DNA of 63,905 nucleotides, filler included, from Candidatus Tectimicrobiota bacterium (GTDB lineage: Bacteria > JACPSX01), in the NCBI GenBank assembly GCA_016193065.1. It is 6 parts of 6 records of this genome, joined end to end, with 100 filler letters (N's around TTAATTAATTAA, not from the genome) between each part and the next. Parts side by side here need not be neighbours in the genome. Positions count along the whole stretch, not along the records: positions 1 to 22,529 come from JACPSX010000172.1; positions 22,630 to 50,186 come from JACPSX010000175.1; positions 50,287 to 52,885 come from JACPSX010000244.1; 3 more parts are not named here. One strand, written 5' to 3'. Below, piece after piece: positions 20,498 through 52,885 of this stretch (within the stretch, counting starts at the first letter, position 1; every line of letters starts with the position of its first letter). The notes beneath the pieces were generated by a model. That model saw only the letters and a program-made list of their open reading frames with translations, made no database searches and was not told where the DNA came from. Both the position numbers and the translations under genes were made by a program.

Positions 20498-20785
20498 TCC
20501 GAGGGAGTAGCCCCCGGACCTCAGCGGTTGTAGAAAGGGACCGGGTGTGCCCCGTAGGGCGACTTAAAGTTTTGCAGGCGCCGCCCTCCCGAATGGTGAA
20601 ACCTCCCTGCAGTCCAAACACCTCCGAACTCAAATCGCCCTCCCGCGCAAAAGTTTACTGGAGCCTCAAGGGGCACCCCGGTCCCTCCCCTTGCTCTTGT
20701 CGCAAGCGCTTCGGGAGCCCAAGAGGGCACCCCCGAGGATCTGCAGAGGCTGGCAATTCCTCAGTATGAACCCGAGGTGGGCAGG
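20498..20785 (+). repeat. Promoter-adjacent repeat family A, copy 1, with nested family B element (20537-20685)
   Basis: GTCGCAAGCGCTTCGGGAGCC...CCCGAGGA core shared with 24.3, 34.2, 45.5 and 52.8 kb. Confidence 0.85.
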
Positions 20786-20798
20786 CGCGGGTTCTGGC

Positions 20799-20827
20799 TT
20801 GACCCGAGCAGGCCCCATGAGTAGTAT
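20799..20827 (+). promoter_or_regulatory. sigma70-type promoter of MFS gene
   Basis: TTGACC-N17-TAGTAT. Confidence 0.6.
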
Positions 20828-20889
20828 AGCGTGCGGTGTTTGTTGAACCATTCGTCCCGGGTTTCCCATAGGACAACTGCGGAGGTGGA

Positions 20890-22155
20890 GTGGACGATCC
20901 GGCTAAGGCGGAGTCAAAGGCGGGAGTTTTGCAGTGGGGACTTATCAAGATCATTCTTACCTTGCTTCTGCTCACCGCCGCTTTTGGCACCACCTCCATC
21001 CTTTTCCCGCCTTTTCTTGACGGCCTGGGATATCACATATCGGCCATCGGGGTTCTCGTCTCTCTGCTCAATGTTGCGGCCCTTCTCTCCCGCCTCCCTT
21101 CCGGTTTGCTCTACAACGCCGGCCGCGCCGGCCGCCTGATCCGCCTTTCCCTGATCCTCTTTGGCGTCACGACGGCCCTTTACCCCTTTGCCAAGGATCC
21201 TCTGTTTTTGTGGTCCTTGCGTTTCGTAAACGGGCTCTTTTATGGCGTGGCCACTACGGTCAACTTCGCCATGTACATGGATGCAATTCCCCCTCAGGTG
21301 GCCCGGCACCGGGCCCTGGCTCTCTATGCCGGCGGGCTGGCGGCCGGACACATGGTTGGCAATACAATCGGAGGCTACACGCACGACATTTTCGGCATGG
21401 ATAATGCCTTCTTCATCACCGCGTTTTTCTCTTCCGCGGCGCTGCTCTTTACCTTCCGGATCCAGCTCTACCCCCAGCCTCCGGCCAAACGGCCGGTGGG
21501 TCATGGAGAAGCGGGGGAGGATGCGCAGGCCGCAAAGACCGCGGGACCCTCCTGGCTTTCCCGGATCCGCCGCTTCGTTCCCGCGTTTCTCGATCCCCTG
21601 GTCGTCGATATGTTCATGGTGGCCTTTTTCCTGAACCTCTTCTTTTCCCTGGCGGGCACCTACGTGACCCTTTACGCGCTGGCTGTCGGGCTCACATTGG
21701 GACACGTGGGGGTGATCAAGGGCGCCCTGTCGCTCACGAACGCTGTCACCCGCCCGTTCAGCGGTGACCTGGCCAGCCGCTTTGGTGAGGATCGCATCTC
21801 GAACATCGGTCTCACCGTAACCACCTGCCTGTTGATGGTAATCCCCTTCCTGTCCACGCTGGTACCCTTGGTGATTCTCTTCGTCCTCATGGGGTTCATG
21901 CGGGCGGGGGTGCTGGTTTCCAATACGGTGAAAGCGGCCCGGGTGGGGGAAAAGCGCATGAGCCGGGGGATGGCCTCGGGGCTTTATAATGCGGCTACAG
22001 ACCTGGGAACCGTTGCCGGGCCCATTTACGGCGGGCTCGTTGCCTCCCAGGTTGGAATCAAGCCCATGTTCTGGGTCTCACCCGTCATCGGGCTGGGGGC
22101 CTATTTCCTGGTGCAGTGGGTCGCCCGCCGCCGCGCCCCGCTGATGTCCGCGTAA
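20890..22155 (+). CDS. MFS transporter
   Basis: About 12 TM segments, two-fold internal symmetry; GGAGG RBS. Confidence 0.88.
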   Translation: MDDPAKAESKAGVLQWGLIKIILTLLLLTAAFGTTSILFPPFLDGLGYHISAIGVLVSLLNVAALLSRLPSGLLYNAGRAGRLIRLSLILFGVTTALYPFAKDPLFLWSLRFVNGLFYGVATTVNFAMYMDAIPPQVARHRALALYAGGLAAGHMVGNTIGGYTHDIFGMDNAFFITAFFSSAALLFTFRIQLYPQPPAKRPVGHGEAGEDAQAAKTAGPSWLSRIRRFVPAFLDPLVVDMFMVAFFLNLFFSLAGTYVTLYALAVGLTLGHVGVIKGALSLTNAVTRPFSGDLASRFGEDRISNIGLTVTTCLLMVIPFLSTLVPLVILFVLMGFMRAGVLVSNTVKAARVGEKRMSRGMASGLYNAATDLGTVAGPIYGGLVASQVGIKPMFWVSPVIGLGAYFLVQWVARRRAPLMSA

Positions 22156-22322
22156 GAGGCACTTGCCGGCCTTCCGTCCATGATCCCAAGGAGATCGGGC
22201 GTTTCGGTGTAACCGCTTGACAAGCAAAGAAGATCCGGCCTAAGATTCCCCACTGTGGAGGCTGGTCCGGCTCAGAGGGACTTGCCATCGACCCGCCGCC
22301 GTTTCCTTTTGGAGGTTCCACC

Positions 22323-22529
22323 ATGCGAGTCGTCATTGTGGGGTGCGGGAGAGTTGGATCAGAGTTGGCCAACGCCCTGTCGGTCGAAAGGCACGAGGTC
22401 GTGGTCATTGATCGCAACCCGCTCTCCTTCGGGCGGCTGTCGCGGGACTTCAGCGGCCGCATGCTCACGGGGATCGGGTTTGATCGCGACGTCCTCCAAA
22501 AAGCCGAGATCGAGGGTGCCGAGGCTTTG
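22323..22529 (+). CDS. TrkA-family potassium uptake NAD-binding protein (3' partial)
   Basis: MRVVIVGCGRVG Rossmann motif, GIGFDRDVL. Confidence 0.85.
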
Positions 22530-22629
22530 NNNNNNNNNNNNNNNNNNNNNNNNNNNNNNNNNNNNNNNNNNNNTTAATTAATTAANNNNNNNNNNNNNNN
22601 NNNNNNNNNNNNNNNNNNNNNNNNNNNNN
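22530..22629. other. Artificial contig linker
   Basis: N44-TTAATTAATTAA-N44. Confidence 0.99.
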
Positions 22630-22917
22630 GTCCCCGATCATTTTCCCCTTTGGGGTCAGCAGGGTTGCATAGGTCCCCTCACCAGCTTTCAGGTTCTTTA
22701 CATTGTTGGAGACCAAGCTGTGCAGAAACTCCTGCCGGTCTTTTCCCACGAGCCGTATTTTTCCCAGGAAGCTGCGATCGCACAAACCCGCACCCCCACG
22801 CACGGCTCCGTGCTCTGTGGTGGAGTCCCCGTAGTGGCCGGGGATTTCCCACCCGTCGAGGGTTGCCAAGACGGCGCCGAGCCGGCAGTGAACTGTGGAC
22901 AAAGGAGACTGTTTCAT
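22630..22917 (-). CDS. GcvT/YgfZ-family aminomethyltransferase-like protein (3' partial)
   Basis: SPL...H, GWEIPGHYG, DRSFLGK, LLTPKGK motifs. Confidence 0.85.
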
Positions 22918-23178
22918 CCGGTGTTCTCCACGGAGCGGGCACACCACAATACCGCGGCTCAACCTCATTCTGGATGAAGAAGAAGCTGGCGTCAAGAGTC
23001 GCCTGTTCCTGTCCGTCCAGGTTTCGGGTTGAGGGATTCGGACACCAGCGGCGTCCTCAAGTGTGCCGAAGAGCTTGCAGTGGGGTATCGGAGTCGGTCG
23101 CCGACGGGGCGCCTCTCAGACCCGGACGATCGAGGAGGTTGCCGGGCTGCGCTTCGGATGGCCCGGCAGGGGATGGTG

Positions 23179-24123
23179 TCAAAGCGCCTCGGAAGGCAGC
23201 AGGTAGGAAAAACTCAGGAACCGGGAGATTTCCGCTGCTACCGCGGCATTGTTCTTGAGCAGCGCCAGGTTAGCTCGCAGGCAGCGGCCCCCGCTCAGGT
23301 GATCCATCCTCTCCAGGAGAAACGGGGTCAGGTGGGGACCCCGGATCTTCTGGCAATCCGCTTCCTCTTGAGCTTGGGCGAGGAGGGTCTCCATTTCGGA
23401 GAAATCCACACCGGACTCCTCAGAAACAGGAATGGTGACCAACAACGCGGAAGAACCAGACAGCGCCCAGTGGCAGCGGGCCACCCGGGCGATCTTTGCG
23501 AAGCTGGTCGTGGAGTGTGTGAGCCTCAGGCCGCTGCGGGGCGAATAGAAAGCAGGGAGTTCCTGGGTACCAAACCCGATGATGGGGACTCCGAGCGTTT
23601 CCAGAAGCTCGACGGTCTTGGGCAAGTCAAGAAGGGACTTCATCCCCGAACAGGTGACCACCAAAGGGGAGCAGCTCAGAGCTGACAGGTCGGCGGAAAC
23701 GTCGAATCTCCCGGGAAACTGGCGATGGATCCCTCCAATCCCGCCGGTGGCAAGAACCTGGATGTTGGCCCGGCAGGCGAGCCGGAGCGTGGCGGACACC
23801 GTTGTTCCGCCCCATTTTCCGCTGCAGACGACCTGCGCCAGGTTTCCCAGGTTCGCTTTGGAGCTGTCCTCCCGCTCGGCCAGCGCCCGAATCTCCTGGT
23901 TGGTGAGGCCCACCCGGATTTTTCCGGCCACCACTCCAATGACAGCCGGAGTCGCGCCGGCGCCGCTGACAATTTCCTTCAATTCGCACACGGTCTCCCA
24001 GCTCGTAGGAGACGGCAGGCCGTGCGAGAGTAGAGCAGACTCCAGGGCGACGACCGGTCTCCCTGCCCGGATGGCGCCGGCCACAGAAGGATCGATTCGG
24101 AAGTAGTCATTGGGAATTTCCAA
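23179..24123 (-). CDS. psuG: Pseudouridine-5'-phosphate glycosidase
   Basis: VVALES...HGLP, TTVSAT, ATGGIGG, DVSADL, TPFLL motifs. Confidence 0.93.
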   Translation of the reverse strand: MEIPNDYFRIDPSVAGAIRAGRPVVALESALLSHGLPSPTSWETVCELKEIVSGAGATPAVIGVVAGKIRVGLTNQEIRALAEREDSSKANLGNLAQVVCSGKWGGTTVSATLRLACRANIQVLATGGIGGIHRQFPGRFDVSADLSALSCSPLVVTCSGMKSLLDLPKTVELLETLGVPIIGFGTQELPAFYSPRSGLRLTHSTTSFAKIARVARCHWALSGSSALLVTIPVSEESGVDFSEMETLLAQAQEEADCQKIRGPHLTPFLLERMDHLSGGRCLRANLALLKNNAAVAAEISRFLSFSYLLPSEAL

Positions 24124-24287
24124 GGATTTTCCTTCGGGCTGAGGTTTGCCCGGACGCTAACAGATTTTCCTGCGCAAGTCAACGCCGCCCCGGCGCCAGC
24201 AGAGGGGCCAGCGACAGAGGGCACCCACCTGTCTGCGTGCGGACCTGTCTGCCGTGGCGGCACAGGCAGGCGCAGAGGTGCCCCTAC

Positions 24288-24404
24288 AGTCCGAGGGGGT
24301 TCCTCCCCTTCCTCACGTCGCAAGCGCTTCGGGAGCCCGAGGGGGCTGCCCCGAGGACCTTGCCAAAAGGGGCTCCCCCAGGTGGTAAACTGGGAGTGGG
24401 CAAG
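24288..24404 (+). repeat. Promoter-adjacent repeat family A, copy 2 (short form)
   Basis: GTCCGAGGG...GTCGCAAGCGCTTCGGGAGCC...CCCCGAGGACCT...AAACTGGGAGTGGGCAAG. Confidence 0.85.
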
Positions 24405-24417
24405 CGGGAAATGGTCC

Positions 24418-24446
24418 TTGATCTGCCCTGACCCCTATGATAGGTT
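24418..24446 (+). promoter_or_regulatory. sigma70-type promoter of rsmE
   Basis: TTGATC-N17-TAGGTT with extended TG. Confidence 0.55.
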
Positions 24447-24487
24447 CAAGAAAAATTCGCTGGCGCTGACGCGGTGAGGTTTACCGG

Positions 24488-25228
24488 GTGCATCGGTTCT
24501 TTGTTGGCCGCGGGCAATTTACCCCACCCCAAATCACGATTTCCGGAAGCGATGTCGCACATATCCGCAAGGTTCTGCGCTTGAAGCCCGGAGACAGGAT
24601 TGAAGTCGTCGATGAGGAAGGGGGTCTCTACGCCGTCCAATTGGAACAAGTAGAGGTGGACAGGGTCAGGGGGGAAGTAATCGGGAAGATTCCGACAGCG
24701 GCTCCGCAGGGTCTTGCCATTACGATCGCACAGGCGGTTCCCAAAGGCGACAAGATGGATTGGATCGTGCAGAAGGCGACGGAGCTGGGGGTCTCCCGGA
24801 TCGTTCCTCTGCTGAGCGAACGCGTGATCGTTCGCTTAAACCCAGCCCTGGAGGCCCGCCGGGTGGCGCGCTGGGAGAAACTGGCCCTGGAAGCTGCCAA
24901 ACAGTGCAAGCGCCTGTCCGTTCCGCAGATTTCCCGGTTTCTCTCTCTGGACGTTTTCTGCCAGGAAAGGGAAGCTCAGGATCTCGGTCTCATTCTCTGG
25001 GAAGGGGAGACAGCAACCCGACTGCGCTCCGTGCTGGCGGAAGCGAAACGGGGGGGGAATCTCTCGGTCATCATCGGTCCCGAAGGAGGATTTTCGGACT
25101 CCGAGGTCGAAACGGCCCGGTCCCGGGGCTTCCGTCCGGTGACGCTGGGATCCCGAATCCTGCGCACTGAGACGGTAGCCTTGAGTGTTTTGAGCGTGCT
25201 TCAGTACGAGTTGGGAGATTTTGGTTAG
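24488..25228 (+). CDS. rsmE: 16S rRNA m3U1498 methyltransferase
   Basis: HIRKVLRL, QKATELG, IGPEGG, LGSRILRTETV motifs. Confidence 0.95.
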   Translation: MHRFFVGRGQFTPPQITISGSDVAHIRKVLRLKPGDRIEVVDEEGGLYAVQLEQVEVDRVRGEVIGKIPTAAPQGLAITIAQAVPKGDKMDWIVQKATELGVSRIVPLLSERVIVRLNPALEARRVARWEKLALEAAKQCKRLSVPQISRFLSLDVFCQEREAQDLGLILWEGETATRLRSVLAEAKRGGNLSVIIGPEGGFSDSEVETARSRGFRPVTLGSRILRTETVALSVLSVLQYELGDFG

Positions 25229-25234
25229 CATTAG

Positions 25235-25418
25235 CAGGCTGCTGAAAACCCTCCGTTCACCCTTCGACCGCGGGTACCCGCGAAGCGGGTGCGGTTTCCG
25301 GGTGAGGGCGAACGGAGGAAGTCCTGAAATTGCTGATGATTTTCCGTTCGTGGTGAGCCCTTCGACCAGGCTCAGGACAGGCTTGTCGAACCACGAAAAG
25401 GATTTTTTCAGAATCCTG
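25235..25418. mobile_element. MITE-like element (family D)
   Basis: Imperfect TIR CAGGCTGCTGAAAA/TTTTCAGAATCCTG; internal core shared with family C. Confidence 0.7.
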
Positions 25419-25437
25419 TGAGAGGAGAAATCGGCCG

Positions 25438-27000
25438 ATGGAGAAGATCAGCCGCGCCCTTATCAGCGTGTCGGATAAAAGGGGAGTTGTGGAACTGGCC
25501 CGTGGCCTTCAAGAAATGGGGGTCGAAATCCTCTCCACGGGAGGAACGGCCGGCCTCTTGCAGAAAGAGGGCATCCGGGTCATCAGCGTCTCCGATTACA
25601 CGGGCTTCCCGGAGATCCTGGGAGGAAGGGTCAAGACGTTGCAGCCCCGCATTCACGGCGGGATTCTGGCTAGGCGGGGGGACCCCGCCCATGTCCAGGA
25701 TCTAAAGGCCCATGGCATTCTTCCCATCGACCTGGTGGTGGTGAATTTGTATCCCTTCATTGAAACCGTCGCCCGTGCGGCCCTCTGCGCCTTGGAAGAA
25801 GCCATCGAGACCATCGACATTGGCGGGCCCTCGATGATCCGGGCTGCTGCGAAGAACTTCACGGACGTAGCCGTGGTTGTCGATCCGGAAGATTACCCCG
25901 CTCTTCTACAGGAACTGCGGGATCAGGGGGGGACCTTGTCGCGGCAGAAGCGGTTCGAGATGGCCTGCAAGGCCTTTGAGCATACGGCCCGCTATGATTC
26001 CTGCATTGCTTCCTACTTCCGCGGCCAGGTTGGAAAGGAGCTTTATCCCTCCACCATCACACTGGCTCTGGAGAAGGTCCAGGATCTTCGCTACGGGGAA
26101 AACCCCCACCAGTCTGCGGCCTTTTACCGGGAGATGGTGGTCGCGGAGCCCTGCCTGGCCAATGCTCGCCAGCTTCAGGGAAAGGAACTCTCCTACAACA
26201 ACATCGTGGACCTGGACGCTGCTCTCGCTCTGGTCAAGGAATTTACGGATCCGACAGTGGCCATCATCAAGCACACGAATCCCTGCGGGGTTGCCCGGGG
26301 CGGCTCTCTGGCGGAAGCGTACGCAGGCGCCCTGGAGACGGACCCGGTATCGGCCTTTGGCGGCATCGTTGCCGTAAACCGGGCACTGGATCGCGGGACC
26401 GCTGCGGAGTTAAGCAAGACCTTTTATGAAGCCGTTGTAGCACCCGGCTATGAGGCGGGCGCCCTGGAGGTGTTCAGCACCAAGAAGAACCTCCGTGTCT
26501 TGGAGGTACCGCCGTGGGAACACAGGAAAGGGTGGAATCCCGAGACTTGGGATATGCGCAAGGTTGCCGGCGGCTATCTGCTCCAGCAGCGGGACTTGCT
26601 CGGGTGGCTCGGGATGGAGATCCGGGTGGTGACCCGCCGGGAGCCGACTCCGCAGGAATGGCAGGGCCTGGAATTTGTCTGGCTCGTTTCCAAACACGTG
26701 AAATCCAATGCGATTGTTTACGGGAATGCGAACCGCTCTTTGGCGATCGGGGCAGGACAGATGAGCCGCGTCGATTCTTGCCGGGTTGCCGCCATGAAGG
26801 CGCGTGGCTCTCTGCGGGGAGCGGTGATGGCTTCCGATGCATTCTTCCCGTTTCGAGATGGAATTGATGAGGCGGCTTCCGTGGGCATCACGGCCGTGGT
26901 CCAGCCCGGAGGTTCCATCCGGGATCAAGAAGTTATCGAAGCGGCCAACGAACATGGGATGGCCATGGTCTTTACCGGGGTTCGGCACTTCAAGCACTGA
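25438..27000 (+). CDS. purH: Bifunctional AICAR transformylase/IMP cyclohydrolase
   Basis: RALISVSDK, IDIGGP, LRYGENPHQ, KHTNPCG, SDAFFPF motifs. Confidence 0.98.
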   Translation: MEKISRALISVSDKRGVVELARGLQEMGVEILSTGGTAGLLQKEGIRVISVSDYTGFPEILGGRVKTLQPRIHGGILARRGDPAHVQDLKAHGILPIDLVVVNLYPFIETVARAALCALEEAIETIDIGGPSMIRAAAKNFTDVAVVVDPEDYPALLQELRDQGGTLSRQKRFEMACKAFEHTARYDSCIASYFRGQVGKELYPSTITLALEKVQDLRYGENPHQSAAFYREMVVAEPCLANARQLQGKELSYNNIVDLDAALALVKEFTDPTVAIIKHTNPCGVARGGSLAEAYAGALETDPVSAFGGIVAVNRALDRGTAAELSKTFYEAVVAPGYEAGALEVFSTKKNLRVLEVPPWEHRKGWNPETWDMRKVAGGYLLQQRDLLGWLGMEIRVVTRREPTPQEWQGLEFVWLVSKHVKSNAIVYGNANRSLAIGAGQMSRVDSCRVAAMKARGSLRGAVMASDAFFPFRDGIDEAASVGITAVVQPGGSIRDQEVIEAANEHGMAMVFTGVRHFKH

Positions 27001-27010
27001 GGGTCCAAAC

Positions 27011-29106: not shown

Positions 29107-29340
29107 GGCCCCTTCCTGAACTCACAGCCAAAAGTTTCGCGGTCTGTTCGCACCGCTATCCTAACGACTCGCAAACCGGGGTGGCAACTTCTCCGCTACC
29201 CCAGCGCCGGAAAAATCATAAAAAAACCGGCGATTTCAGGTGAAATCTTACAAATAATACCCTGATTTTTCGTTTTTTTCCCAGCAGGTAGGTTTCTAAG
29301 GGAGAGATTCCTGTTGATTTCTTCTCCCGCTAGTTCTAAA

Positions 29341-29367
29341 TTAGCACTCACTTCAGTTGAGTGCTGA
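29341..29367 (+). promoter_or_regulatory. CIRCE element (HrcA operator)
   Basis: TTAGCACTC-N9-GAGTGCTGA, one mismatch to consensus, upstream of groES. Confidence 0.92.
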
Positions 29368-29428
29368 TAATTACTTCGGCGAAAAACAGCTTCTACGGTA
29401 AATCAGCCGGTCAAGAAGGAGGAAGAGC

Positions 29429-31380
<1,952 letters not shown>

Positions 31381-31394
31381 GCGAAAGAGCAACC

Positions 31395-31430
31395 TCAAAG
31401 AGCCCCCGCTCGGAGGCAGGGGCTCTTTGA
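31395..31430 (+). terminator. Intrinsic terminator after groEL
   Basis: TCAAAGAGCCCC...GGGGCTCTTTGA hairpin. Confidence 0.75.
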
Positions 31431-32400: not shown

Positions 32401-33700
32401 ATGACACCCAACGAAGTACTGAAATTTGCCAAGGAGAAGGGCGCCAAGATCCTCGACTTGCGGTTCAAGGATTTTCCCGGACTCTGGCAGCACTTTTCGG
32501 TTCCCATCCACAATCTTGAGGAGAGCAGTTTCGAGGAGGGGTTCGGCTTTGACGGGTCCAGTATCCGGGGTTGGCAGTCGATTCACGCGAGCGACATGCT
32601 GGTGCTTCCGGACCCCGCCACCGCCGTACTGGACCCCTTTTGCAAAGAAACGACCCTGGTTATGATCTGCAATATTCTCGATCCCATCACGAAGGAAAAG
32701 TACTCCCGGGACCCCCGCTACATTGCCCAGAAGGCTGAGGCTGGATTCTATCGAGGGGCAGTGGAACACCGGACGGGATGAGAGACCGAACCTGGGATAC
32801 AAGCCCCGCTACAAAGAGGGGTACTTCCCCGTTCCCCCATCTGATACTCTGCAGGACATCCGCACGGAAATGGTCGGGATCATGGGCGAGGTCGGGATTC
32901 CTGTGGAAGCCCACCACCACGAGGTGTCAACGGGGGGGCAAAACGAAATCGACATGAAGTTCGACGGGCTAGTCCGCATGGGCGACAACATGATGTGGTA
33001 CAAATACATCGTCAAGAACGTCGCCCGCAAACACAACAAGACAGCGACTTTCATGCCCAAACCCATCTTCGGGGACAACGGCAGCGGAATGCACGTTCAC
33101 CAGAGCCTGTGGAAAGAAGGGAAACCGCTCTTTGCGGGGGATCGCTATGGCGGGCTGAGCGCTCTGGCTTTAAACTACATCGGCGGTATTCTCAAGCACG
33201 CCTCAGCCCTGTGTGCCTTTGTGGCTCCCACCACAAACTCGTACAAGAGGTTGGTCCCGGGGTTTGAGGCACCGGTGAACCTGGCCTACTCCGTGCGCAA
33301 TCGCAGCGCTGGGGTGCGGATCCCCATGTACTCCCCCAGCCCGAAGGCGAAGAGAATCGAGGTGCGGTTTCCGGACCCCGCCTGCAACGCGTACCTGGCC
33401 TTTGCGGCCATGCTTATGGCCGGACTCGATGGTATCCAAAACAAGATTCCTCCGGGAGATCCTCTGGACAAGGACATCTATGCCCTGACCCCGGAAGAGT
33501 TGAAGGGAGTGCCAACGGTTCCCAGCTCTCTGGAGGCGGCTCTCAATACCCTGGAGGAGGATCACGATTTTCTGTTCAAAGGGGACGTGTTCACGGAGGA
33601 CGCTCTGTCCACCTGGATCAACTACAAGCGCAACAACGAGGTGGATCCTTTGCGCTTGAGGCCCCACCCTTACGAGTTCGCCCTTTACTTCGACATCTAG
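32401..33700 (+). pseudogene. glnA: Type I glutamine synthetase with internal deletion and frameshift at 32740/32741 (real or assembly error)
   Basis: N-part FDGSSI...[10 protein letters not shown] jumps to another frame at LDSIEGQW; C-part has HHEV, GSGMH, EVRFPD, DIY. Confidence 0.9.
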
Positions 33701-33708: not shown

Positions 33709-33738
33709 GGGGCCGGCGGAAAGGCCGGCCCCATTTTT
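33709..33738 (+). terminator. Intrinsic terminator after glnA
   Basis: GGGGCCGGC-GGAAAG-GCCGGCCCC followed by ATTTTT. Confidence 0.75.
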
Positions 33739-34102: not shown

Positions 34103-34326
34103 TAGTCCGAGGGAGTTGGCCCCCGCAGGCGACCTAAGCGGTTGCGAGGCAGGGAACCCCCGATCCAGCCGACATGATTCACGTCGCAAGCGCTTCGGGA
34201 GCCGCACCCATAGGATGGGTACCCGCATCCTGGGTGTGGGTACTCCCGAGGACCTTGCCCAAAGAGGCTCCCCCGAGGGTCTAGTGAGGGTAGCAATTCC
34301 TCGGTGACAAACCGGGGGTGGTCACG
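34103..34326 (+). repeat. Promoter-adjacent repeat family A, copy 3
   Basis: Near-collinear with reverse complement of 45439-45603; carries a nested GGGTACCCGC palindrome. Confidence 0.88.
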
Positions 34327-34405
34327 GGCTGGAAAGGTATTGACAAGCTCCTTCACGGATGGTCTTCTAAAACCGGTTGAGAGGGGCAGCCGGTGATGGA
34401 GGTCC

Positions 34406-42496: not shown

Positions 42497-42584
42497 ACAA
42501 AGCCTCCCGGGGGAAAGCTCATCTCCCCACAAACACTTTAAACGCCACTGAGTCATCGCCCGTAAGCACCCCAAGTATACGGTC

Positions 42585-45368: not shown

Positions 45369-45396
45369 AGCCCTTTTAACCTCCAGAGTTTGGAAG

Positions 45397-45425
45397 AAAT
45401 TATCATTTCTCACCAGTTCCGGCAA
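45397..45425 (-). promoter_or_regulatory. sigma70-type promoter of ftsE
   Basis: TTGCCG-N17-TAATTT with extended TG. Confidence 0.55.
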
Positions 45426-45438
45426 TAGAAAATCTACC

Positions 45439-45783
45439 CTTGCCTACCTCCAGTTTTTCATCGAGGGATTGCACACAGGTGAGGTCCTCGGGGTGCCCCC
45501 TTGGGCTCCCGAAGCGCTTGCGACGCGAATTATGTTGGCCGGATTGGGGATTCTCTTCCTCGCAACCGCTTAGGTCGCCTGCGGGGGCTACCCCTCGGAC
45601 TAGAGGTGGTCGAGAAGGGGAGACCGGGTGTGGCCCGCAGGGCGACTTAAAGTTTTGCAGGTGTCGCCGCCGGAAAACTCGACTTCCCTGGCATGCGAAA
45701 GAGAGATGACTTCAAATCGCCCTCGCGCGCAAAAGTTTACCGGGTACCCGCAGAGCGGGTGCCCAAGGGGCACCCCGGTCTCC
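45439..45783 (-). repeat. Repeat family A copy 4 (45439-45603) plus family B element (45619-45783)
   Basis: Matches 34103-34326 and 20537-20685 respectively. Confidence 0.88.
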
Positions 45784-45997
45784 TCCTTGCAGCTGCCTAG
45801 CCCGCTTGGCCGAGGCTACCCCTCGGAAAAGGACGACGGAGCAGGCTCCCTCTCTTGCGATTTTGCAGACACAAACCAGGAGTGAACAAAGGAGAATGCT
45901 GCCTTGACTCGCCTTGCTCCTTGCTCCTATAGTGACTGCCGGAACGCGCGGGCTGTGCGGGCACACCTGGCCAAGGGATCAGATTCTCGGAGTCTCC

Positions 45998-47233
45998 ATG
46001 CTGAGTTTGCAGGACATCGAAAGGGCAAGGGCCGTCCTCGCAGATGCAATTGACGTGACTCCACTGGTCTTTTCTCGGTCCCTCAGTGAGATGACGGGCT
46101 GTCAGGTCTACTTGAAGATGGAGAACCTGCAAAAAACGGGATCCTTCAAAGTCCGGGGGGCGTATACGAAAATGTCCGGCCTCTCTGCTGCCGAGCGGAA
46201 GGCGGGTGTGTTTGCCGCCTCGGCCGGAAATCATGCCCAGGGAGTTGCCTATGCGGCCCGCAAGTTTCGCGTGCGCTCCACGATCGTAATGCCCCAAAGC
46301 TCCGCCATTGCCAAACTGCTGGCCACCCAGAGCTACGGAGCCCGCACTGTTCTCTGGGGTCAATCGTTCGAAGATGCCTTTCGCCGGGCCCGGGAGCTGG
46401 CGCGCCAGAAAAAGGGGACTTTTATTCATGCCTTTGATGACTACGCGGTCATGGCAGGCCAAGGCACTATCGCTCTCGAAATCCTCGACGTCTTGTCCCA
46501 GGTGGATGCGGTCCTGGTTCCCGTCGGGGGCGGAGGACTGCTGGCGGGGATCAGCACGGCCCTCAAGGAGACCCGGCCCCGCATTCGGGTCCTGGGCGTG
46601 GAGGCAGCCGGGGCTGCCTCGCTGGCATTCTCCCGCCGGGAGGGGCACAGGGTGATCCTGTCCCGAGTCCACACTCTGGCGGACGGCATCGCGCTCAAGA
46701 GCGTGGGGCGCCTGACCTACCCGATTTTAGAGAAGTACGTGGATGATGTGGTGACCGTGCAGGAGGATTCCATTGCCCGGGCCATCACGCTTTTGCTGGA
46801 GCGCAAAAAGGTCGTTGTGGAGGGGGCCGGAGCCGTGCCGCTGGCCGCACTCCTGGAAGGAGTTTCCTCCCTGCGGGGGAAAAGGGTTGTCCTGATCTTG
46901 AGCGGCGGCAACATCGATGTGACCCTGCTGGATCGGATCATCGAAAAAGGGCTGGTCACTTCCGGGCGGTGCATGCGCCTGGAAGTGGAATTGCAGGACA
47001 TCCCTGGGGCTCTCTCTCGGCTTACTCAGTTAATTGCCGATGCCCGGGCCAACATTCTGCACGTTTCCCACGACCGCCTCAGCCAGGACGTCCCCATCGG
47101 ATCCACTAAAGTGGATCTCGCCTTGGAGACCCGGGGCGACGACCATATGCAGGAGGTTCTCAAGATTCTAACGCGGAAAGGATACTCGGCGGTCCTTCTG
47201 GGCTCTGGGCGGGACGCACGTCGTGGACCTTGA
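45998..47233 (+). CDS. ilvA: Threonine ammonia-lyase with C-terminal ACT domain
   Basis: ENLQKTGSFKVRGA, SAGNHAQG, PVGGGGL, SGGNID, ACT domain. Confidence 0.93.
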   Translation: MLSLQDIERARAVLADAIDVTPLVFSRSLSEMTGCQVYLKMENLQKTGSFKVRGAYTKMSGLSAAERKAGVFAASAGNHAQGVAYAARKFRVRSTIVMPQSSAIAKLLATQSYGARTVLWGQSFEDAFRRARELARQKKGTFIHAFDDYAVMAGQGTIALEILDVLSQVDAVLVPVGGGGLLAGISTALKETRPRIRVLGVEAAGAASLAFSRREGHRVILSRVHTLADGIALKSVGRLTYPILEKYVDDVVTVQEDSIARAITLLLERKKVVVEGAGAVPLAALLEGVSSLRGKRVVLILSGGNIDVTLLDRIIEKGLVTSGRCMRLEVELQDIPGALSRLTQLIADARANILHVSHDRLSQDVPIGSTKVDLALETRGDDHMQEVLKILTRKGYSAVLLGSGRDARRGP

Positions 47234-48956
47234 GCTGGACGCTCAAAGAGCCCTGCCACAGGTTCGCCTGGGGCGTGGCGGCCAAATCCAGAAGAGGTGA
47301 GCTGCGCAGGACCTCTGCCGCTTCTTGCGGACAGCCAAAAGCAATGGCATCCATGACCTTGCGGCCGTCGCTGACGAGGAATTTGACGTGTTCCCCTTCT
47401 CTTCCCACCCTCCGGGCCTTGCTCGCGCAGCGCAGGCCCCGCCAGAGAAAAACCGGTGCGGGGTGGCCCGCTCCAAAGGGGGAGAGGTTTTCCAGGTCCG
47501 AAATGGCCTGGGTGTGCAGGTCGCTTAACGTTGCTTCCCCGTCGACCTCAAGAGGAGCGGGGATCTCTATCCCGGAGGTCAAGGAAGCGGCCACTTCCTG
47601 GAAGCGACTCTTGAACCTTTCCAGGTTTCCCGCCTGCACAGTAAATCCGGCGGCGCCCGTGTGGCCGCCAAATTGCTTGAGTTCCGCTGCACACAGCCGC
47701 AGGCACTCGTAGAGGTCCAGGCCGGGGATGCTGCGGGAAGACCCTCTTCCCTGGCCGTTTTCCAAGGCGATGAGTGCAACCGGTCGCAGGTACTCCTCGG
47801 CGATCTTGCTGGCCACGATGCCAATGATCCCAGGATGCCACTGCTGGGAGGCCAGGACAATCGCGGGGTTGTCCTGCTCCCCGCTCTGCTGCAGTTGGGC
47901 CTTCACGTCCCGATAAATTTCCTCCTGAACCTGCTGACGCCTGCGGTTTTCCGCTTCCAGAAGAGAGGCGAGCTCTGCGGATTCCTCAAGACGGGTGGAC
48001 AGGAGCAGATTCACAGCCGCGCTGGCCGCCCCCAGACGCCCCACCGCATTGAGGCGGGGGGCCAGGCGGAATCCGATGTCGGCCGCCGTGACCGCTCCTT
48101 TCAATCCCGCTTCCCCCTTCAAAGATTGCAGGCCCGGCTTGGAGGTGACGCTGAGTTCCTGGAGGCCGTGCCGCAGCAGGGTGTGGTTTTCCCCGCCCAG
48201 GGGTGCCACGTCGGCCACCGTTCCCAGGGCAACGAGGTCAAGATGGCGCTTCAAATTGGGCAGCGGAGCGCGGTCAAACCCCCTCTGCCGCAGCCGGTTG
48301 CGCAAGGCCAGGAGTAACTTGAAGGCCACGCCGACGCCCGAGAGAGATTTGAACGGATATTCGCACTGCGGTCTGCGGGGGTTCAGAATCGCCAGGGCCC
48401 GGGGCAGCAGTTCGGGGGGTTCATGGTGATCGGTGATGATCAGATCGAGCCCCAGACGGTGAGCTGTTTCTGCCGGCTCGAGGGCGCTGATGCCGTTGTC
48501 GACCGTAATGACCAGCCGGGCCCCTTCTTTTCTGAGAAGCTCCAGGGCCTCGGAGTTGAGTCCGTATCCATCCTCAATCCGGTGGGGAAGGAAAAAGCGC
48601 GCCGGGAACCCGATCTCGGAAAAAAAAGTGCACAGCAGCGCCGTCCCCGCAATCCCGTCGACGTCGTAATCACCGTAAACGACGATCTGTTCCCCGTGTT
48701 CCAGGGCCGTTAGAATCCGCTCGACGGCCTTTTCCATATCCGTCATTGCGAAGGGATTGTGCAGGTCTTCCAGGGAAGCTTGCCAGAAGGCGCGGGCTTG
48801 GTTTGGATCTTCCAGCCCCCGGTGCACGAGGAAGCGGGCGGCCAGGAGGCTCAGCCCGAGAGTTTTTGCTAATTGAGTCTCCTGATCCGGTTTGGCTTCA
48901 CGGACAATCCACCTCTTGGGCGGCAATGTTCTCCCTTTCCCGGATGAAGGTAACAA
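47160..48956 (-). CDS. recJ: Single-stranded DNA exonuclease RecJ
   Basis: YGDYDVDG, TVDNG, TDHH, GTVADV, GGH...AAG; start uncertain. Confidence 0.96.
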   Translation of the reverse strand: MLPSSGKGRTLPPKRWIVREAKPDQETQLAKTLGLSLLAARFLVHRGLEDPNQARAFWQASLEDLHNPFAMTDMEKAVERILTALEHGEQIVVYGDYDVDGIAGTALLCTFFSEIGFPARFFLPHRIEDGYGLNSEALELLRKEGARLVITVDNGISALEPAETAHRLGLDLIITDHHEPPELLPRALAILNPRRPQCEYPFKSLSGVGVAFKLLLALRNRLRQRGFDRAPLPNLKRHLDLVALGTVADVAPLGGENHTLLRHGLQELSVTSKPGLQSLKGEAGLKGAVTAADIGFRLAPRLNAVGRLGAASAAVNLLLSTRLEESAELASLLEAENRRRQQVQEEIYRDVKAQLQQSGEQDNPAIVLASQQWHPGIIGIVASKIAEEYLRPVALIALENGQGRGSSRSIPGLDLYECLRLCAAELKQFGGHTGAAGFTVQAGNLERFKSRFQEVAASLTSGIEIPAPLEVDGEATLSDLHTQAISDLENLSPFGAGHPAPVFLWRGLRCASKARRVGREGEHVKFLVSDGRKVMDAIAFGCPQEAAEVLRSSPLLDLAATPQANLWQGSLSVQLKVHDVRPAQSPEGPPSILSALES

Positions 48957-49101
48957 ATGCCATGCTGGGGCGGTGGGAAGACTCCCGGGTCACGAAGTGG
49001 ATCCCATCCAAGAACCAGCCCGCCTGAACCCCCTCATTGATTAACTTTTCGAGGACTTCGTCGGAAACCACGCTGGTCTCCATGACCCGGTACACTAACA
49101 C
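48898..49101 (-). CDS. Small conserved hypothetical protein (DUF4177-like)
   Basis: YRVMETS...LEKLINE...GWFLDGI...MAFV pattern; strong AGGAGG RBS. Confidence 0.65.
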   Translation of the reverse strand: MLVYRVMETSVVSDEVLEKLINEGVQAGWFLDGIHFVTRESSHRPSMAFVTFIRERENIAAQEVDCP

Positions 49102-49203
49102 GGTGGTCCCTCCTCCTGTCAAGACAAAAGGTACAAGATATGGGATGATCCTATGTCGGCCGCGCTACAAATTGTGTGCAGGCGAATAGGATTCCTTAAA
49201 TAA

Positions 49204-50186
49204 CTAGCGTCCTCCAACTAAGATGGCGGCTAGGCGGGCCTGGATTTCATCCAGATCCCCGGGCGAGCAAGAAGAGCCGTTCCACAGAAAAGAAAACGTG
49301 AGGACCTCCCCTTCCTTGGATCCCCCGTAACCGGACAGGGCTTTGACACCTTGCAGTGATCCCGTCTTGACCCGCAAGCGGCCCCGGACAGGAGAGGAGG
49401 AAAAGCGCCGTTCCACCACCCCGTCCAGCCCCAGGAGTCCCAGGGAGGCCAGGAACTCGGCCTGCACAGAGAAGTTGTGATACATGGCCCCCAAAACAAA
49501 CACCAGTCCTGCGGCCGAGAGACGATTTTCCCGGGACAGGCCCGAGCCATCCTGGAGACGGTAGGAATCCGGTGGGAGTCCAATGCCTGCCAGATAGTCC
49601 CTCAAGACCTGCAGTCCATTTTCCCGGGTCCCTGGACTGCCGTAAAGTTCACTCCCAAGGGTCCTCAAGAGCTGCTCCGCGATGAAATTGTTGCTCCACT
49701 TGTTCATGTCCTGAAGGATCAGTGAAAGCGGCTTAGAGCGGTGAGTGTAGAGAACTCGTGCTTGCGGGGGAACCATCCCCTGGCGCACAGTCCCCCTCAG
49801 GGAGATCCCCATCTCTTCAAGAAACTTGGCGAAGGTCCGGGCGGTGTAGAGGGCAGGTTGCTCAATGCTGCGGTAGAGGCTGAGGCGACCTGCTCCGGGT
49901 GACACGGAACCCCTGACCTGGAGGATCTCCCGGTTGCCGGAGGAAGTCACTTGAACGCCCAGCGGCTTGCCTCTTCCCTGTGTCTCTGTCGTCGCCTGGT
50001 TGTCGATCTCCAGGTGAGGAGTTTCGGGATCAATCCGGACCCGGGGTGGGGCTCCTCTTTTCCCGGCGGCTTCCACCGTCACCTCGACGGAGTTGAAGTT
50101 CAAGGAGAGCGCGCCGGGCTTGGCCGCGTAGGCGCGGCTCCTCTCCTCCGGAGTCCAATCGTAAGGAAGCGAGTCAAGGGCCATCC
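49204..50186 (-). CDS. dacB: D-alanyl-D-alanine carboxypeptidase/endopeptidase, peptidase S13 (5' partial)
   Basis: SNNFIAEQL, DGSGLSR, KTGSL motifs. Confidence 0.92.
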
Positions 50187-50286
50187 NNNNNNNNNNNNNN
50201 NNNNNNNNNNNNNNNNNNNNNNNNNNNNNNTTAATTAATTAANNNNNNNNNNNNNNNNNNNNNNNNNNNNNNNNNNNNNNNNNNNN
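50187..50286. other. Artificial contig linker
   Basis: N44-TTAATTAATTAA-N44. Confidence 0.99.
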
Positions 50287-50452
50287 CATCCACTGCAACC
50301 ACCAAGTATTCACCGCTTGGTTTCTGCCGATAAAACTGGATGCCTGGAAGCTGTTTATTTTGCCAACGTGACCAAAGAGCGCTTTCGCTGTCTGTCAAGT
50401 TCTTGCGCAACTCCCGCGCTTTATCTTTGAGATTCGAATTGTACCTCAACAT
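50287..50452 (-). CDS. DUF559/Vsr-like endonuclease domain protein (3' partial or degraded)
   Basis: YNSNLKDKARELRKNLTDSE...LW...FYRQKP. Confidence 0.8.
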
Positions 50453-50601
50453 CTCTCGATCCTCTCAAAATCCCCCCTGCCCCCCCTTTTTCAAAGGGGG
50501 GTTATGTTAGCGCTTATGCCCTCAAGGGGGGAGGGTGAGGGAGGGGGTTCCTTACATTCCGCTTCTCCGCTGGAAAGAGGCTCGGGGAAGGCCTCGCGCA
50601 A

Positions 50602-51519
50602 TTAGTCGAGTCTCCAGGGATCCATGCGGGTGCTGGCAGGCGCGGGCTCAAGAACTTCCTGGATCTTCCGGTAGACCCTGCGATTGTAGAGATAGGCAAT
50701 GTGCCCCAGGGCTTCCAGAGGGACGTTCAGAGAGTGATCTCCCTCCAGATGAGAGCTCTCGGCCGGAATCACGATTTCGTCGAAGTCTGAGTAAAGGGAT
50801 ACGACGGGCACTGCAGAAGTGTTTGCCGGATCGGTTTCCAGAGAATGGAGGAACGGGCTCCCGGGCCGCATCTGCAAGGCGCAGGGACCCAGTGCGAAGG
50901 TCCACAATTTCGTGCCATGGTGAGGTGTCCCCAAAGAGATGACTTTCTCGACCCGTTGGGAGCCCCCGAGCCGGGACACGTAGTATCGGGCGATAAGCCC
51001 TCCCATGCTGTGGCCGATGAGGATTACCTTGGTCCGGCCGCAAGCCTCGTACACCTCTTCGACCTTCTCCTTGAGCTGCTCGGCCAGGAGCATCAGGTCT
51101 CCCCAGGGGGGTGCTAGTGAAAGGGCCACCGCCGGCCTCCATCCCTGGCGCTCCAACCACCATTTCAAAGGATAGAGAGTAAAAGATCCCATCATGTAAC
51201 CTGGTACAAGCACCACCGGGGTATATGGGTCCTCGCCCTCCAGGGGCTGCAGGAGCGGCGAGAGGGGTATCCGGAAAACCCTGGCCACCAGATGCCGCAC
51301 GGCGTCCGCAGCGCTGAGAGTCAGCGCCACGAGATGGTAGAGATATTCGGCCAGGAATGGACCCCAGCGAGATACTCTTTTGGAGGCTTCCAGCGCCCTC
51401 CTGGGGATCTGAACGCTGTCCGAGTTGGCGATCTCGATCCACCGTAGGCTGTATAGCCAGAGATGCTCGAGGAGGAGAAGGAGAAGGAACAGGAGGATGA
51501 GGTTCGTGATGAGTTCCAT
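50602..51519 (-). CDS. Membrane-anchored alpha/beta hydrolase (lipase/esterase)
   Basis: GHSMGG nucleophile elbow, LGTPHHG, Asp/His triad candidates. Confidence 0.88.
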   Translation of the reverse strand: MELITNLILLFLLLLLLEHLWLYSLRWIEIANSDSVQIPRRALEASKRVSRWGPFLAEYLYHLVALTLSAADAVRHLVARVFRIPLSPLLQPLEGEDPYTPVVLVPGYMMGSFTLYPLKWWLERQGWRPAVALSLAPPWGDLMLLAEQLKEKVEEVYEACGRTKVILIGHSMGGLIARYYVSRLGGSQRVEKVISLGTPHHGTKLWTFALGPCALQMRPGSPFLHSLETDPANTSAVPVVSLYSDFDEIVIPAESSHLEGDHSLNVPLEALGHIAYLYNRRVYRKIQEVLEPAPASTRMDPWRLD

Positions 51520-51526
51520 CCGCGCC

Positions 51527-52624
51527 TTATCCGATCTTTACGGCGCGCGCTTGCCCCCGGGTCTCCAGTGCCAGATCGATCAGGCGATCGAGGAGCCGGG
51601 GATAGGAGAGGCCGCTTGCTTCCCAGAGCTTGGGATAGATGCTGGTGGCGGTAAATCCGGGAATGGTGTTGATTTCGTTCAAATAGATTTTTCCCGTCCC
51701 CTTTTCCCAGAAGAAGTCCACCCGGGCCATTCCGGTGGCGGCAATCGCCTTGAATGCCTCCAGCGCCAAGCGGCGGACGGTCTGAGACGTTTCGGCAGGG
51801 ATCGGGGCCGGGATGATGATGTCCGTGAGACCCTCGGTGTACTTGGCTTCATAATCGTAAAATTCCCGGTGCGGCACGAGTTCCGCCACCCCCGAGACTT
51901 GCGGCTCGTCATTGCCCAGTACCCCGCATTCCAGTTCCCGGCAATCGATCCCTTTTTCCACCACCACCCTGCGGTCGTACTGGAAGGCAAGTTCCAGGGC
52001 CTGTTTCAAATCCGCCTGCTCTTTTGCTTTCGAGATTCCCACGCTGGAGCCCAGGTTGGCCGGTTTTACGAAAACCGGATAGCCCAGAGCCTTCTCGATG
52101 CGATCCTGCTCCCGGTTCGGGTCAGACTGCCATTCATGGCGCAGCACCAGGGTGAAAGGGGGATTGGGCAGGTTCCGGTACTGGAAAAGCGCCTTCATGA
52201 CAGCTTTGTCCATTCCGATAGCGGAGGCCAAGACGCCGGCGCCCACGTAGGGGACGCCGGCCAGCTCGAAGAGACCCTGGATCGTGCCGTCCTCGCCGCG
52301 TGGGCCGTGGAGCACGGGGAAGGCCACGTCGATAGGAACTCGTTCGGGAGGCGCTTTCTGCTTGAGGACCAGAAGTCCGCCGCAGGAAGGATCGGCGGGC
52401 AGAACAACAGGAGACTCGTTTCGCGGATCAGGGAAGGTGCCTCCCCGGAAGGAAGGGAGCCAGCGCCACTGCCCATCGGGCTCAATGTAAACGGGGAGGA
52501 CTTCGTACTGGTTGGGATCCAGGGTGGCAATCACCGAGGAAGCCGAAGCTTTGGAGACTTCGTGCTCCCCGGATTGGCCGCCAAAGAAAACGGCCACCCG
52601 CAGCTTCTTAGATGGATTTGCCAA
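51527..52624 (-). CDS. ddl: D-alanine--D-alanine ligase
   Basis: GGQSGEHEVS, LHGPRGEDG, GSSVG, FYDYEAKY, NEINTIPG. Confidence 0.97.
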   Translation of the reverse strand: MANPSKKLRVAVFFGGQSGEHEVSKASASSVIATLDPNQYEVLPVYIEPDGQWRWLPSFRGGTFPDPRNESPVVLPADPSCGGLLVLKQKAPPERVPIDVAFPVLHGPRGEDGTIQGLFELAGVPYVGAGVLASAIGMDKAVMKALFQYRNLPNPPFTLVLRHEWQSDPNREQDRIEKALGYPVFVKPANLGSSVGISKAKEQADLKQALELAFQYDRRVVVEKGIDCRELECGVLGNDEPQVSGVAELVPHREFYDYEAKYTEGLTDIIIPAPIPAETSQTVRRLALEAFKAIAATGMARVDFFWEKGTGKIYLNEINTIPGFTATSIYPKLWEASGLSYPRLLDRLIDLALETRGQARAVKIG

Positions 52625-52656
52625 TCTCGCGCCTTCCTCCCCCAAAGTGTCAGCCG

Positions 52657-52685
52657 TTTCTATCACACCCCCCGGAACCTGTCAA
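52657..52685 (-). promoter_or_regulatory. sigma70-type promoter of ddl
   Basis: TTGACA-N17-TAGAAA with extended TG. Confidence 0.55.
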
Positions 52686-52698
52686 CGGCCAGAGGGCA

Positions 52699-52885
52699 CT
52701 TGCCCACCCTCAGTTTCTCTTCGGCATCCTCGGGAGTGCTCAGACCCAGGATGCGGGTACCCACAAAGTGCACCCGCTCTGCGGGTACCCGGCTCCCGAA
52801 GGGCTTACGGCGAGGCAAGGGGGACCGGGGTGCCCCTTGGGGCTCCAGTAAACTTTTGCCCGCCAGGGCGATTTGTTCTCGGTGC
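52699..52885 (-). repeat. Repeat family A copy 5 with nested palindromes and partial family B element
   Basis: Reverse complement matches CTTCGGGAGCC...CCCGAGGA and GCAAAAGTTTAC...GGGGCACCCCGGTCC. Confidence 0.85.

Follow-up and report, generated by a model that had tools for sequence, protein, structure and literature searches.

The stretch of DNA analysed here (63,905 nt, hereafter the window) originates from Candidatus Tectimicrobiota bacterium (JACPSX01, assembly GCA_016193065.1) and consists of six contigs joined by N44-TTAATTAATTAA-N44 linkers (N runs at 22530-22629, 50187-50286, 52886-52985, 58013-58112 and 60732-60831), with a GC content of 59%. The public DNA runs that contain window sequence are groundwater metagenomes from one study; no RNA run was among those listed. 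The window carries five copies of a GC-rich repeat, each followed by the predicted promoter of a downstream gene; according to Pfam these genes encode an MFS protein, RsmE, GlnE, an FtsE-like ABC ATPase and Ddl, as stated in a first-pass annotation made from the sequence alone. Copies 2 and 4 are located between divergent genes, copies 1 and 3 between co-directional genes. The repeats very probably belong to one family of miniature inverted-repeat transposable elements (MITEs), restricted to its lineage and characterised by common ends and a 10-bp target-site duplication, and we favour target choice over selection as the probable cause of the 13-bp spacing between the right end of the element and the -35 hexamer of the adjacent promoter.

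Reading the sequence confirmed the places and strands of the five copies given by the first-pass annotation, as well as the core: GTCGCAAGCGCTTCGGGAGCC is present without any change in copies 1-4 and copy 5 carries the variant GCCGTAAGCCCTTCGGGAGCC. The extents had to be corrected for two copies, since copy 1 in fact spans 20442-20785 and copy 4 reaches to at least 45614. The arrangement at the gene-proximal end was likewise found as annotated. In all five copies a terminal 9-mer (in copies 1-5 GTGGGCAGG, GTGGGCAAG, GTGGTCACG, GTAGGCAAG and GTGGGCAAG, respectively) is followed by 13 unconserved nucleotides, a TTGNNN hexamer (TTGACC, TTGATC, TTGACA, TTGCCG and TTGACA), a further 17 nt and a -10-like hexamer (TAGTAT, TAGGTT, TCTTCT, TAATTT and TAGAAA). 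The chance of encountering TTG at one fixed offset amounts to about 0.012 per copy by simple arithmetic from the base composition of the window. The terminal motif has the form AAC-N5-GTGGGCAAG, and a search of both strands of the window for AAC-N5-GT[GA]G[GT]CA returned five places, all of which belong to the copies. A model of the last 40 nt, applied unfiltered to the window, scored the five copies at 18-28 bits and the next match at 8.3 bits. The window contains no solo end motif; the motif travels only with the element.

Copy 1 is a complete MITE of 344 bp (20442..20785, +) with a left inverted repeat at 20442-20460, a right one at 20765-20785 and an interior of nested repeats including the core of the R hairpin (20699-20742). 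Its left target-site duplication (20432..20441, CGCGGGGTCT) is identical at 9 of 10 positions to the right one (20786-20795, +, CGCGGGTTCT). Three base pairs further downstream begins the predicted promoter of the MFS gene (20890-22155) with the -35 hexamer TTGACC (20799-20804), a 17-nt spacer and the -10 hexamer TAGTAT (20822-20827). Copy 2 (24193..24404, +) is an insertion of about 210 bp with a truncated left end and the right inverted repeat at 24384-24404. The 13 nt following it (24405-24417, +) lead to the predicted rsmE promoter (-35 TTGATC, 24418-24423; -10 TAGGTT, 24441-24446), and 9-10 bp to its left lies the -35 hexamer (24177..24182) of the promoter predicted for a divergent psuG-like gene (TTGACT-17 nt-TAGCGT, -).

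Copy 3 (34103..34326, +) comprises the right part of a MITE, including the right inverted repeat (34306-34326) and an R hairpin with a GGGTACCC-type hairpin nested in its loop; no left end was identified. Its flank (34327..34368, +) contains the 13 nt, the -35 hexamer TTGACA (34340-34345) and the -10-like hexamer TCTTCT (34363-34368) of the glnE promoter region. Copy 4 (45439..45614, -) is a MITE of about 176 bp with the right inverted repeat at 45459-45439 and a candidate left repeat at 45614-45599 that agrees with the consensus at 12 of 16 positions. Further repeat modules extend from it to approximately position 45891, where a second stretch resembling the left repeat is found 12 nt from a divergent promoter; this promoter (45904..45933, +, TTGACT-18 nt-TATAGT) belongs to a gene encoding a PALP/ACT-domain protein and reached 10/12 in a consensus scan. 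On the gene-proximal side of copy 4 the 13 nt (45438-45426, -) are followed by the predicted promoter of the ftsE-like gene (-35 TTGCCG, 45425-45420; -10 TAATTT, 45402-45397). Copy 5 (52699..52885, -) again consists of the right part of a MITE and stops with its contig at 52885; its right inverted repeat is located at 52719-52699, and the 13 nt (52698-52686, -) precede the predicted ddl promoter (-35 TTGACA, 52685-52680; -10-like TAGAAA, 52662-52657). Neither copy 2 nor copy 3 has an intact left end.

A fragmentary metagenome-assembled genome of 2.7 Mb, referred to as G001, was used as the main comparison genome. Its RsmE, GlnE, Ddl and FtsE proteins share 80-86% identity with those of the window (RsmE 80%) and 57-63% of the four-fold degenerate sites are identical, which at the sequence level marks G001 as a close relative of the window organism. 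Scanning a collection of species-representative genomes with the core 21-mer yielded 28 stretches, of which five are true copies, all of them from G001. The remaining 23 (e.g. in Mycolicibacterium) stem from unrelated organisms and look like chance matches within genes. The same scan of metagenomes yielded 19 stretches with five true copies, including L060 and L063, the latter of which supplies the missing rest of a G001 copy that is cut at a contig end. G001 itself carries about a dozen core copies and at least 13 copies with the end motif. In a BLAST search of copy 2 against 40 relatives of G001, G001 alone matched and the other 39 gave no hit at E <= 0.001. The RsmE orthologues of 24 other relatives reach at most 42% identity. 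Within the phylum of G001 the search covered one genome, namely G001, and close sequenced relatives of the lineage appear to be lacking from the genome collection searched.

The terminal motif turned out to be the right terminal inverted repeat of the element, and its reverse complement (left consensus CTTGCCCACCCCCAGTTTT) closes the left end of the complete copies. Local alignment of this reverse complement against the 700 nt upstream of each copy gave scores of 34 for g30, 30 for L096, 28 for L091, 26 for g63, 24 each for g60 and L088, and 22 each for copy 1 and g31, compared with a median of 16, a 95th percentile of 20 and a maximum of 26 in shuffled controls. The inverted repeats are 19-21 bp long and both tips are near-identical. 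The resulting set of two-ended elements comprises eight copies, i.e. copy 1 and seven copies from G001 and the metagenomes.

The 10-mers that flank these elements on the left and on the right match at 9 of 10 positions not only in copy 1 but also in g30 (GCTAATCACT and GCGAATCACT) and g60 (CTTCAGACTT and CTTCAGAGTT), at 8 positions in L096 (GATTAAGAGT and GATTCAGGGT), at 7 in g63 (AAGTAATGGA and AAGCGACGGA) and at 6 in g31 (GGAAGAAAGG and CAGAGGAAGG). The other two of the eight fail this test unless a boundary is shifted: including four extra bases in the left end of L088 (ATGGCTCCTT and TTAGATGAAC, 3/10) brings it to 6/10, and placing the tip of L091 (GCGCACCGGC and CGAACCGAAT, 1/10) one base earlier brings that copy to 7/10. 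With untuned boundaries, 52 of the 80 positions in the eight copies are identical compared with 20.1 ± 3.9 expected by chance, and none of 20,000 draws of random 10-mers from the same sources reached 52. Neither the duplicated 10-mers nor the 3-bp linkers have a consensus. The 13 unconserved nucleotides consist of the right copy of the 10-bp duplication and 3 bp. The spacing described in the first-pass annotation is real; what the annotation missed are the left inverted repeat and the target duplication, and it is these that account for the 13 nt.

The geometry was examined in 19 copies with the end motif (five from the window, 13 from G001 and one from a metagenome contig). In 12 of them a TTG-type hexamer lies exactly 13 bp beyond the right tip, and in L091 it lies at 12 bp, or at 13 bp after a shift of the boundary by one nucleotide. 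Counting L091, the tally is 13 copies with a -35 hexamer at 13 bp from the right tip (TTGACC, TTGATC, TTGACA, TTGCCG, TTGACA, TTTACT, TTGACA, TTGACC, TTGCTT, TTGACG, TTGACC, TTGACA and TTGACA), one or two with such a hexamer at the left tip and four with none at 13 bp. Seven of the G001 copies, which were found by an end model built without the promoter and lie outside the training copies, served as a test set. Among these, L083 has TTGACA at 13 bp and L091, the ddl orthologue, has TTGACA at 12 bp, or 13 bp after the shift mentioned above, whereas L087, L088, L090, L096 and L099 lack a box at 13 bp from the right tip. L096 has a promoter-like TTGACT-17-TATTTT exactly 13 bp from its left tip, and in L099 a TATAAT located 27 nt after the tip does not fit the rule. 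Pfam places the 3' end of a convergent gene (lptD-like, FAD oxidase, aspS and a sigma-70 gene) opposite g39, L088, L090 and L096, and this gene context explains part of the copies without a -35 box at the right tip; in g39, L087, L090 and L099 the left end was not found or lies beyond the contig end. A second -35-like half-site on the far flank was absent from all six two-ended copies with a promoter at the right end; the target is accordingly one-sided. The window contains 28 intergenic TTGAC pentamers, eight of which have a strict TAnnnT 16-18 nt downstream (rough gene calls). Compared with intergenic TTGAC as a whole, the element is thus more often accompanied by a promoter-like partner, with the samples being small and the gene calls rough.

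Comparison of the two genomes revealed how the promoters relate to the element. At the rsmE site of G001 the element is absent and the promoter is retained (GGGAAATGGCCC TTGATC in G001, GGGAAATGGTCC TTGATC in the window), which provides the empty site in a relative that the first-pass annotation had suggested looking for. The window contains approximately 210 extra bases at this locus, ending with GTGGGCAAG(C) directly before the conserved flank, and in G001 the divergent -35 hexamers AGTCAA and TTGATC are only 25 bp apart. At glnE the two genomes agree fully over the 14 bases before the -35 hexamer and over the entire promoter, and a different repeat module is located upstream in G001. At the ftsE locus of G001 all that is left of the element is a decayed stretch corresponding to its last ~45 bases, with a 3-nt deletion and several changes in the tip; 9 of the 13 nt are preserved and the -35 and -10 hexamers are identical. 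Upstream of the MFS gene G001 carries another repeat family, and the -35 hexamer, spacer and -10 hexamer are the same as in the window. At ddl an element of the same core subtype is present in both genomes, as copy 5 and its orthologous counterpart L091, whose tips are identical at 15 of 21 positions; the -35 hexamer, the spacer (15/17) and the -10 hexamer are conserved, the 13 nt are not. At the latter four loci conservation begins at the -35 hexamer or at most 14 bp upstream, and the sequence upstream of about -49 differs. The promoter at the empty rsmE site and the conservation starting at the -35 hexamer at these four loci show that the promoter boxes are host DNA, older than or independent of the element, and that the region upstream of about -49 turns over.

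The elements range from 115 to 456 bp and are thus too small for a transposase gene. Structural forms with the same ends include a short (~138-170 bp), a medium (~233 bp) and a long form (~345-380 bp), the latter with an inverted doublet (20539-20690 in copy 1) that folds as a long hairpin. The variable interior is made up of a long GC-rich core hairpin with a GTCGCAAG flank, a CAATTCC stretch and other nested short repeats. Between the core arms CTTCGGG and CCCGAGG, which are able to pair, lies an insert whose length varies. A small GGGTACCCGCATCCTGGGTGTGGG-type hairpin was observed in the core-hairpin loop of some copies only (34204-34247, 52792-52738, L066, L063 and L050). Another repeat module with GCTGAC/CAGC units lies to the left of some elements in G001 (L083, L066 (=L040) and L079), and at the MFS locus of G001 this module ends 13 nt before the -35 box without having the terminal motif. 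In four DNA runs, bins containing the element reach a summed depth that is, as a rough estimate, 10-40 times as high as in the flanks, in line with numerous copies, and the contigs of these runs break at the elements, none of them joining across copy 2 or 3 as an empty allele.

Regarding the origin of the family, an autonomous element with these ends next to a transposase gene, as envisaged in the first-pass annotation, was found neither in G001, which is fragmentary, nor in the plasmid and viral-contig collections. The only PF01609 match in G001 is a copy of IS1380 with unrelated inverted repeats and does not qualify as the parent. This apparently intact IS1380-family element (L138, contig C378 of G001) encodes a transposase of 475 residues (NF033539, 189.7 bits) between perfect 15-bp inverted repeats that lie 1641 nt apart and are unrelated to those of the MITE. 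The plasmid collection gave two chance matches and a pattern scan of the viral contigs four, the latter without partners. A Y1_Tnp fragment was detected in G001 (L082 / L037, contig C132:4196-4390) about 35 nt from a truncated copy of the core hairpin; it is a pseudogene of ~50 residues (25.9 bits) with an HUH motif and an internal stop, and is cut by the contig end. The window contains no Y1 transposase.

The first-pass annotation had left three options open, namely a non-autonomous element, a portable upstream regulatory module and a divergently transcribed structured RNA, of which the first proved essentially right. The copies have inverted repeats and fixed 10-bp duplications, the promoter is not part of the element and also occurs at an empty site, and the same geometry relative to pre-existing promoters is found in two genomes. 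We consider it likely overall that the repeats are a MITE family moved in trans by a DDE-type transposase and targeted upstream of pre-existing -35 hexamers. Judged by the 10-bp duplication and the 5'-CT tips, the transposase would best fit the IS4 family, an assignment that, like the DDE chemistry, is inferred from the repeats and the duplication. The two staggered cuts would be made 3 and 13 bp before the -35 hexamer of an existing promoter, and the insertion would leave the order tip, 10-bp duplication, 3 bp and -35 box. During target capture one arm might recognise the TTGAC-like hexamer 3 bp outside the cut, either as DNA or via bound RNA polymerase. Direct reading of the hexamer or of the local DNA shape appears the more likely and tethering to promoter-bound RNA polymerase the less likely variant. 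It is rather unlikely that the transposase complex, instead of reading the DNA sequence alone, docks on the promoter-bound RNA polymerase holoenzyme (sigma region 4 or the alpha C-terminal domain, where the footprint has its upstream edge) and cuts one helical turn, starting 3 bp upstream of the -35 hexamer; if true, this would be a bacterial counterpart of the promoter tethering of the Ty3 type. The degenerate hexamers (TTGCCG, TTTACT and TTGCTT) and the presence of -10 boxes make us lean towards the recognition of real promoters, although later drift and survival could also account for them. The bias in orientation, with the right end facing the gene, may reflect an asymmetric transpososome or later selection.

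Several observations weigh against this explanation. No parent element was found in the collections named above. A left repeat was detected neither at copy 2 nor at copy 3, copies 2, 3 and 5 are without a left end, and copy 4 has no recognisable target duplication (3/10). The four copies g39, L087, L090 and L099 have no -35 box at 13 bp, and in L088 a TTGACA follows 17 bases after the left tip, a distance that shrinks to 13 only by including the four extra bases in the end. Of the five window promoters, that of copy 1 (TTGACC-17-TAGTAT, 9/12) is the only one called by a strict consensus scan; the other four stay below its threshold, and by E. coli standards the window promoters, which are predicted from sequence, would accordingly be moderate. 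The difference at rsmE may stem from an insertion as well as from a loss, since with at most 42% RsmE identity the next relatives are too distant to serve as outgroups. Furthermore, the existence of copies that do not face a promoter shows that insertion is not restricted to promoters, 13 right tips compared with one or two left tips are found at promoters although the tips are near-identical, and in a large population selection could enrich an exact spacing without any targeting.

The last three points speak for selection, according to which the element inserts almost anywhere, the tip (GTGGGCAAG, approximately -57 to -49) serves the promoter as an upstream element or as a site for an activator, and insertions with the exact spacing are favoured until they become fixed. 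In this form the portable upstream regulatory module of the first-pass annotation persists as a weaker rival. The centres of the 9-mer and the -35 hexamer are about 20.5 bp apart, corresponding to two helical turns and the same face of the helix, and the ddl tip has been kept at 15 of 21 positions in the orthologous copies, although this is not clearly above the neutral level (0.57-0.63 identity at four-fold sites). However, the rsmE promoter is present and conserved in G001 without the element, the ftsE tip of G001 has decayed while the -35 and -10 hexamers remained identical, and the genes served are unrelated housekeeping genes. Selection as the cause of the spacing therefore seems doubtful to us.

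A repeat resembling repetitive extragenic palindromes (REP) or bacterial interspersed mosaic elements (BIME), moved as single-stranded hairpin DNA by a Y1 transposase (RAYT, IS200-like), would account for the strong GC-rich hairpin with its conserved 5' flank, the nested loop hairpins, the inverted doublet at 20539-20690 and the mosaic composition, and the Y1_Tnp fragment near a truncated core copy in G001 would fit as well. It is nevertheless very unlikely, given that inverted repeats and 10-bp target duplications are hallmarks of DDE rather than HUH/Y1 transposition, that the Y1 gene survives only as a pseudogene fragment where a contig ends and has no counterpart in the window, and that the GTAG or CGTC tags named in the title of PMC3733652 are absent. 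A structured non-coding RNA, either a multi-copy small RNA or a cis-regulatory leader on either strand, might be indicated by the G-T pair of the core hairpin on the plus strand (CTTCGGG with CCCGAGG) and by 5 of 10 copies folding better than shuffled sequences (z -2 to -5). The whole window, however, gave no Rfam 15 match at the gathering score, permissive thresholds (E up to 5) brought up nothing beyond chance-level hits, the core hairpin stems are invariant so that no covariation can be counted, and a terminal hairpin of the C-rich arm with the G-rich part of the motif, considered as a candidate, was no better than shuffles in 12 of 12 copies. Since the copies also differ by large indels and module swaps, and the transposon hallmarks explain the repeat, we regard the divergently transcribed RNA suggested by the first-pass annotation as still less probable. 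The least probable explanation is a portable promoter, with the -35 and -10 boxes belonging to the element as in some outward promoters of insertion sequences (IS) and in Correia elements. Promoter-like hexamers do follow every window copy at the same spacing, but the 13-nt and 17-nt spacers are dissimilar among the copies, the target duplication between the tip and the -35 hexamer assigns the boxes to the flanking DNA, and the promoter at the empty rsmE site already contradicts this explanation.

The fixed position of the MITE family calls to mind retrotransposons directed to genes transcribed by RNA polymerase III (yeast Ty3; TRE5-A and DGLT-A of Dictyostelium), which insert at a fixed short distance upstream of the transcription start in gene-dense genomes. 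These are retroelements whose integrase is tethered to transcription factors. They share with the family described here the placement at a fixed distance that spares genes, whereas the latter is a bacterial derivative of a DNA transposon. Correia elements of Neisseria and the hybrid promoters formed by IS ends are small mobile repeats beside promoters that can alter expression and carry -35 or -10 boxes in their ends; here, in contrast, both boxes are outside the element and pre-existing. The target preferences known for the IS4 family are symmetric consensuses within the duplicated site and not a one-sided promoter box 3 bp outside it. The likeness to this family lies in the repeats and the duplication; a cognate transposase, which would carry the DDE and YREK motifs, was found neither in G001 nor in the plasmid and viral-contig collections. 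According to De Palmenaer et al. (PMC2266710) IS4-family elements generate target duplications of ~10 bp and two of the subgroups have 5'-NT ends. The duplication of one helical turn thus resembles that of the members covered there (IS10/IS50, IS231 and other subgroups), the ends described here being 5'-CT, and some members have defined target preferences.

IS-derived bacterial MITEs such as MITEAba12, as portrayed in PMC6382973, are similarly short, non-coding, multi-copy and intergenic, with inverted repeats, a target duplication and presence/absence variation. Compared with that account, the present family differs by the position of the tip 13 bp upstream of a -35 hexamer in 13 of 19 copies, mostly in one orientation, by an interior that is a mosaic of other small repeats and by the lack of a detected parent IS. 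REP/BIME sequences and REPINs (PMC3116915, PMC3733652) resemble it as GC-rich imperfect palindromes with a nested mosaic structure and lineage-specific families. REPs are not known to have inverted terminal repeats, target duplications or a fixed promoter spacing. Promoter-coupled terminators (bioRxiv 10.64898/2026.08.19.745784) likewise place a hairpin element at a preferred distance from a downstream promoter. As outlined in that preprint, their own stem forms the -35 box and their T-tract the spacer, whereas in the elements described here the hairpin forms part of a transposon, lacks a T-tract and is located 60-100 nt upstream. A full-text literature search, with supplements and subscription journals outside its scope, did not turn up any account of bacterial transposons that insert at a constant distance from the -35 hexamer. 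The element itself, which comes from a deep-branching, uncultivated lineage, is an ordinary MITE; it is the sharply defined target position that is unusual.

The window contains a number of further features. A second family of short repeats with CCGTTCG...CGAACGG-type inverted ends and an internal GGGTACCCGC hairpin (D2, D3, D9, D10 and D18) is present at 8848-9010, 25247-25365, 53495-53556, 55014-55061 and 57726-57878, with one copy just downstream of rsmE. The region 53300-58010, which comprises two short contigs, is densely occupied by G-rich direct repeats (D5-D7, D11, D16 and D19) and has few long reading frames. A 49-nt stretch occurs with 100% identity at 14941-14989 and 19586-19634, 4.6 kb apart (D14). 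The glnA reading frame (32723-33700) is short and matches only positions 51-344 of Gln-synt_C, and the contigs of the runs X1 and X3 have 113 extra letters between positions 32741 and 32742. The window assembly may therefore lack 113 bases near 32741, which would shift the glnA frame. Directly after glnA a canonical intrinsic terminator with a 9-bp GC stem and a T-run was detected (33709-33732), which suggests that the organism uses ordinary terminators and that the MITE hairpins are not needed for termination.

If target choice is the cause of the spacing, the family would illustrate how a DNA transposon can persist in a compact bacterial genome by landing in the few bases directly before a promoter and so breaking neither a gene nor a promoter, and the order tip, 10-bp duplication, 3 bp and -35 box would constitute a testable target rule. 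For genome annotation, the family is a warning that the ends of such repeats should not be taken for regulator sites or RNAs. Provided that the targeting holds, the elements would mark true promoters in uncultivated lineages and could rewire the regulatory DNA upstream of them.

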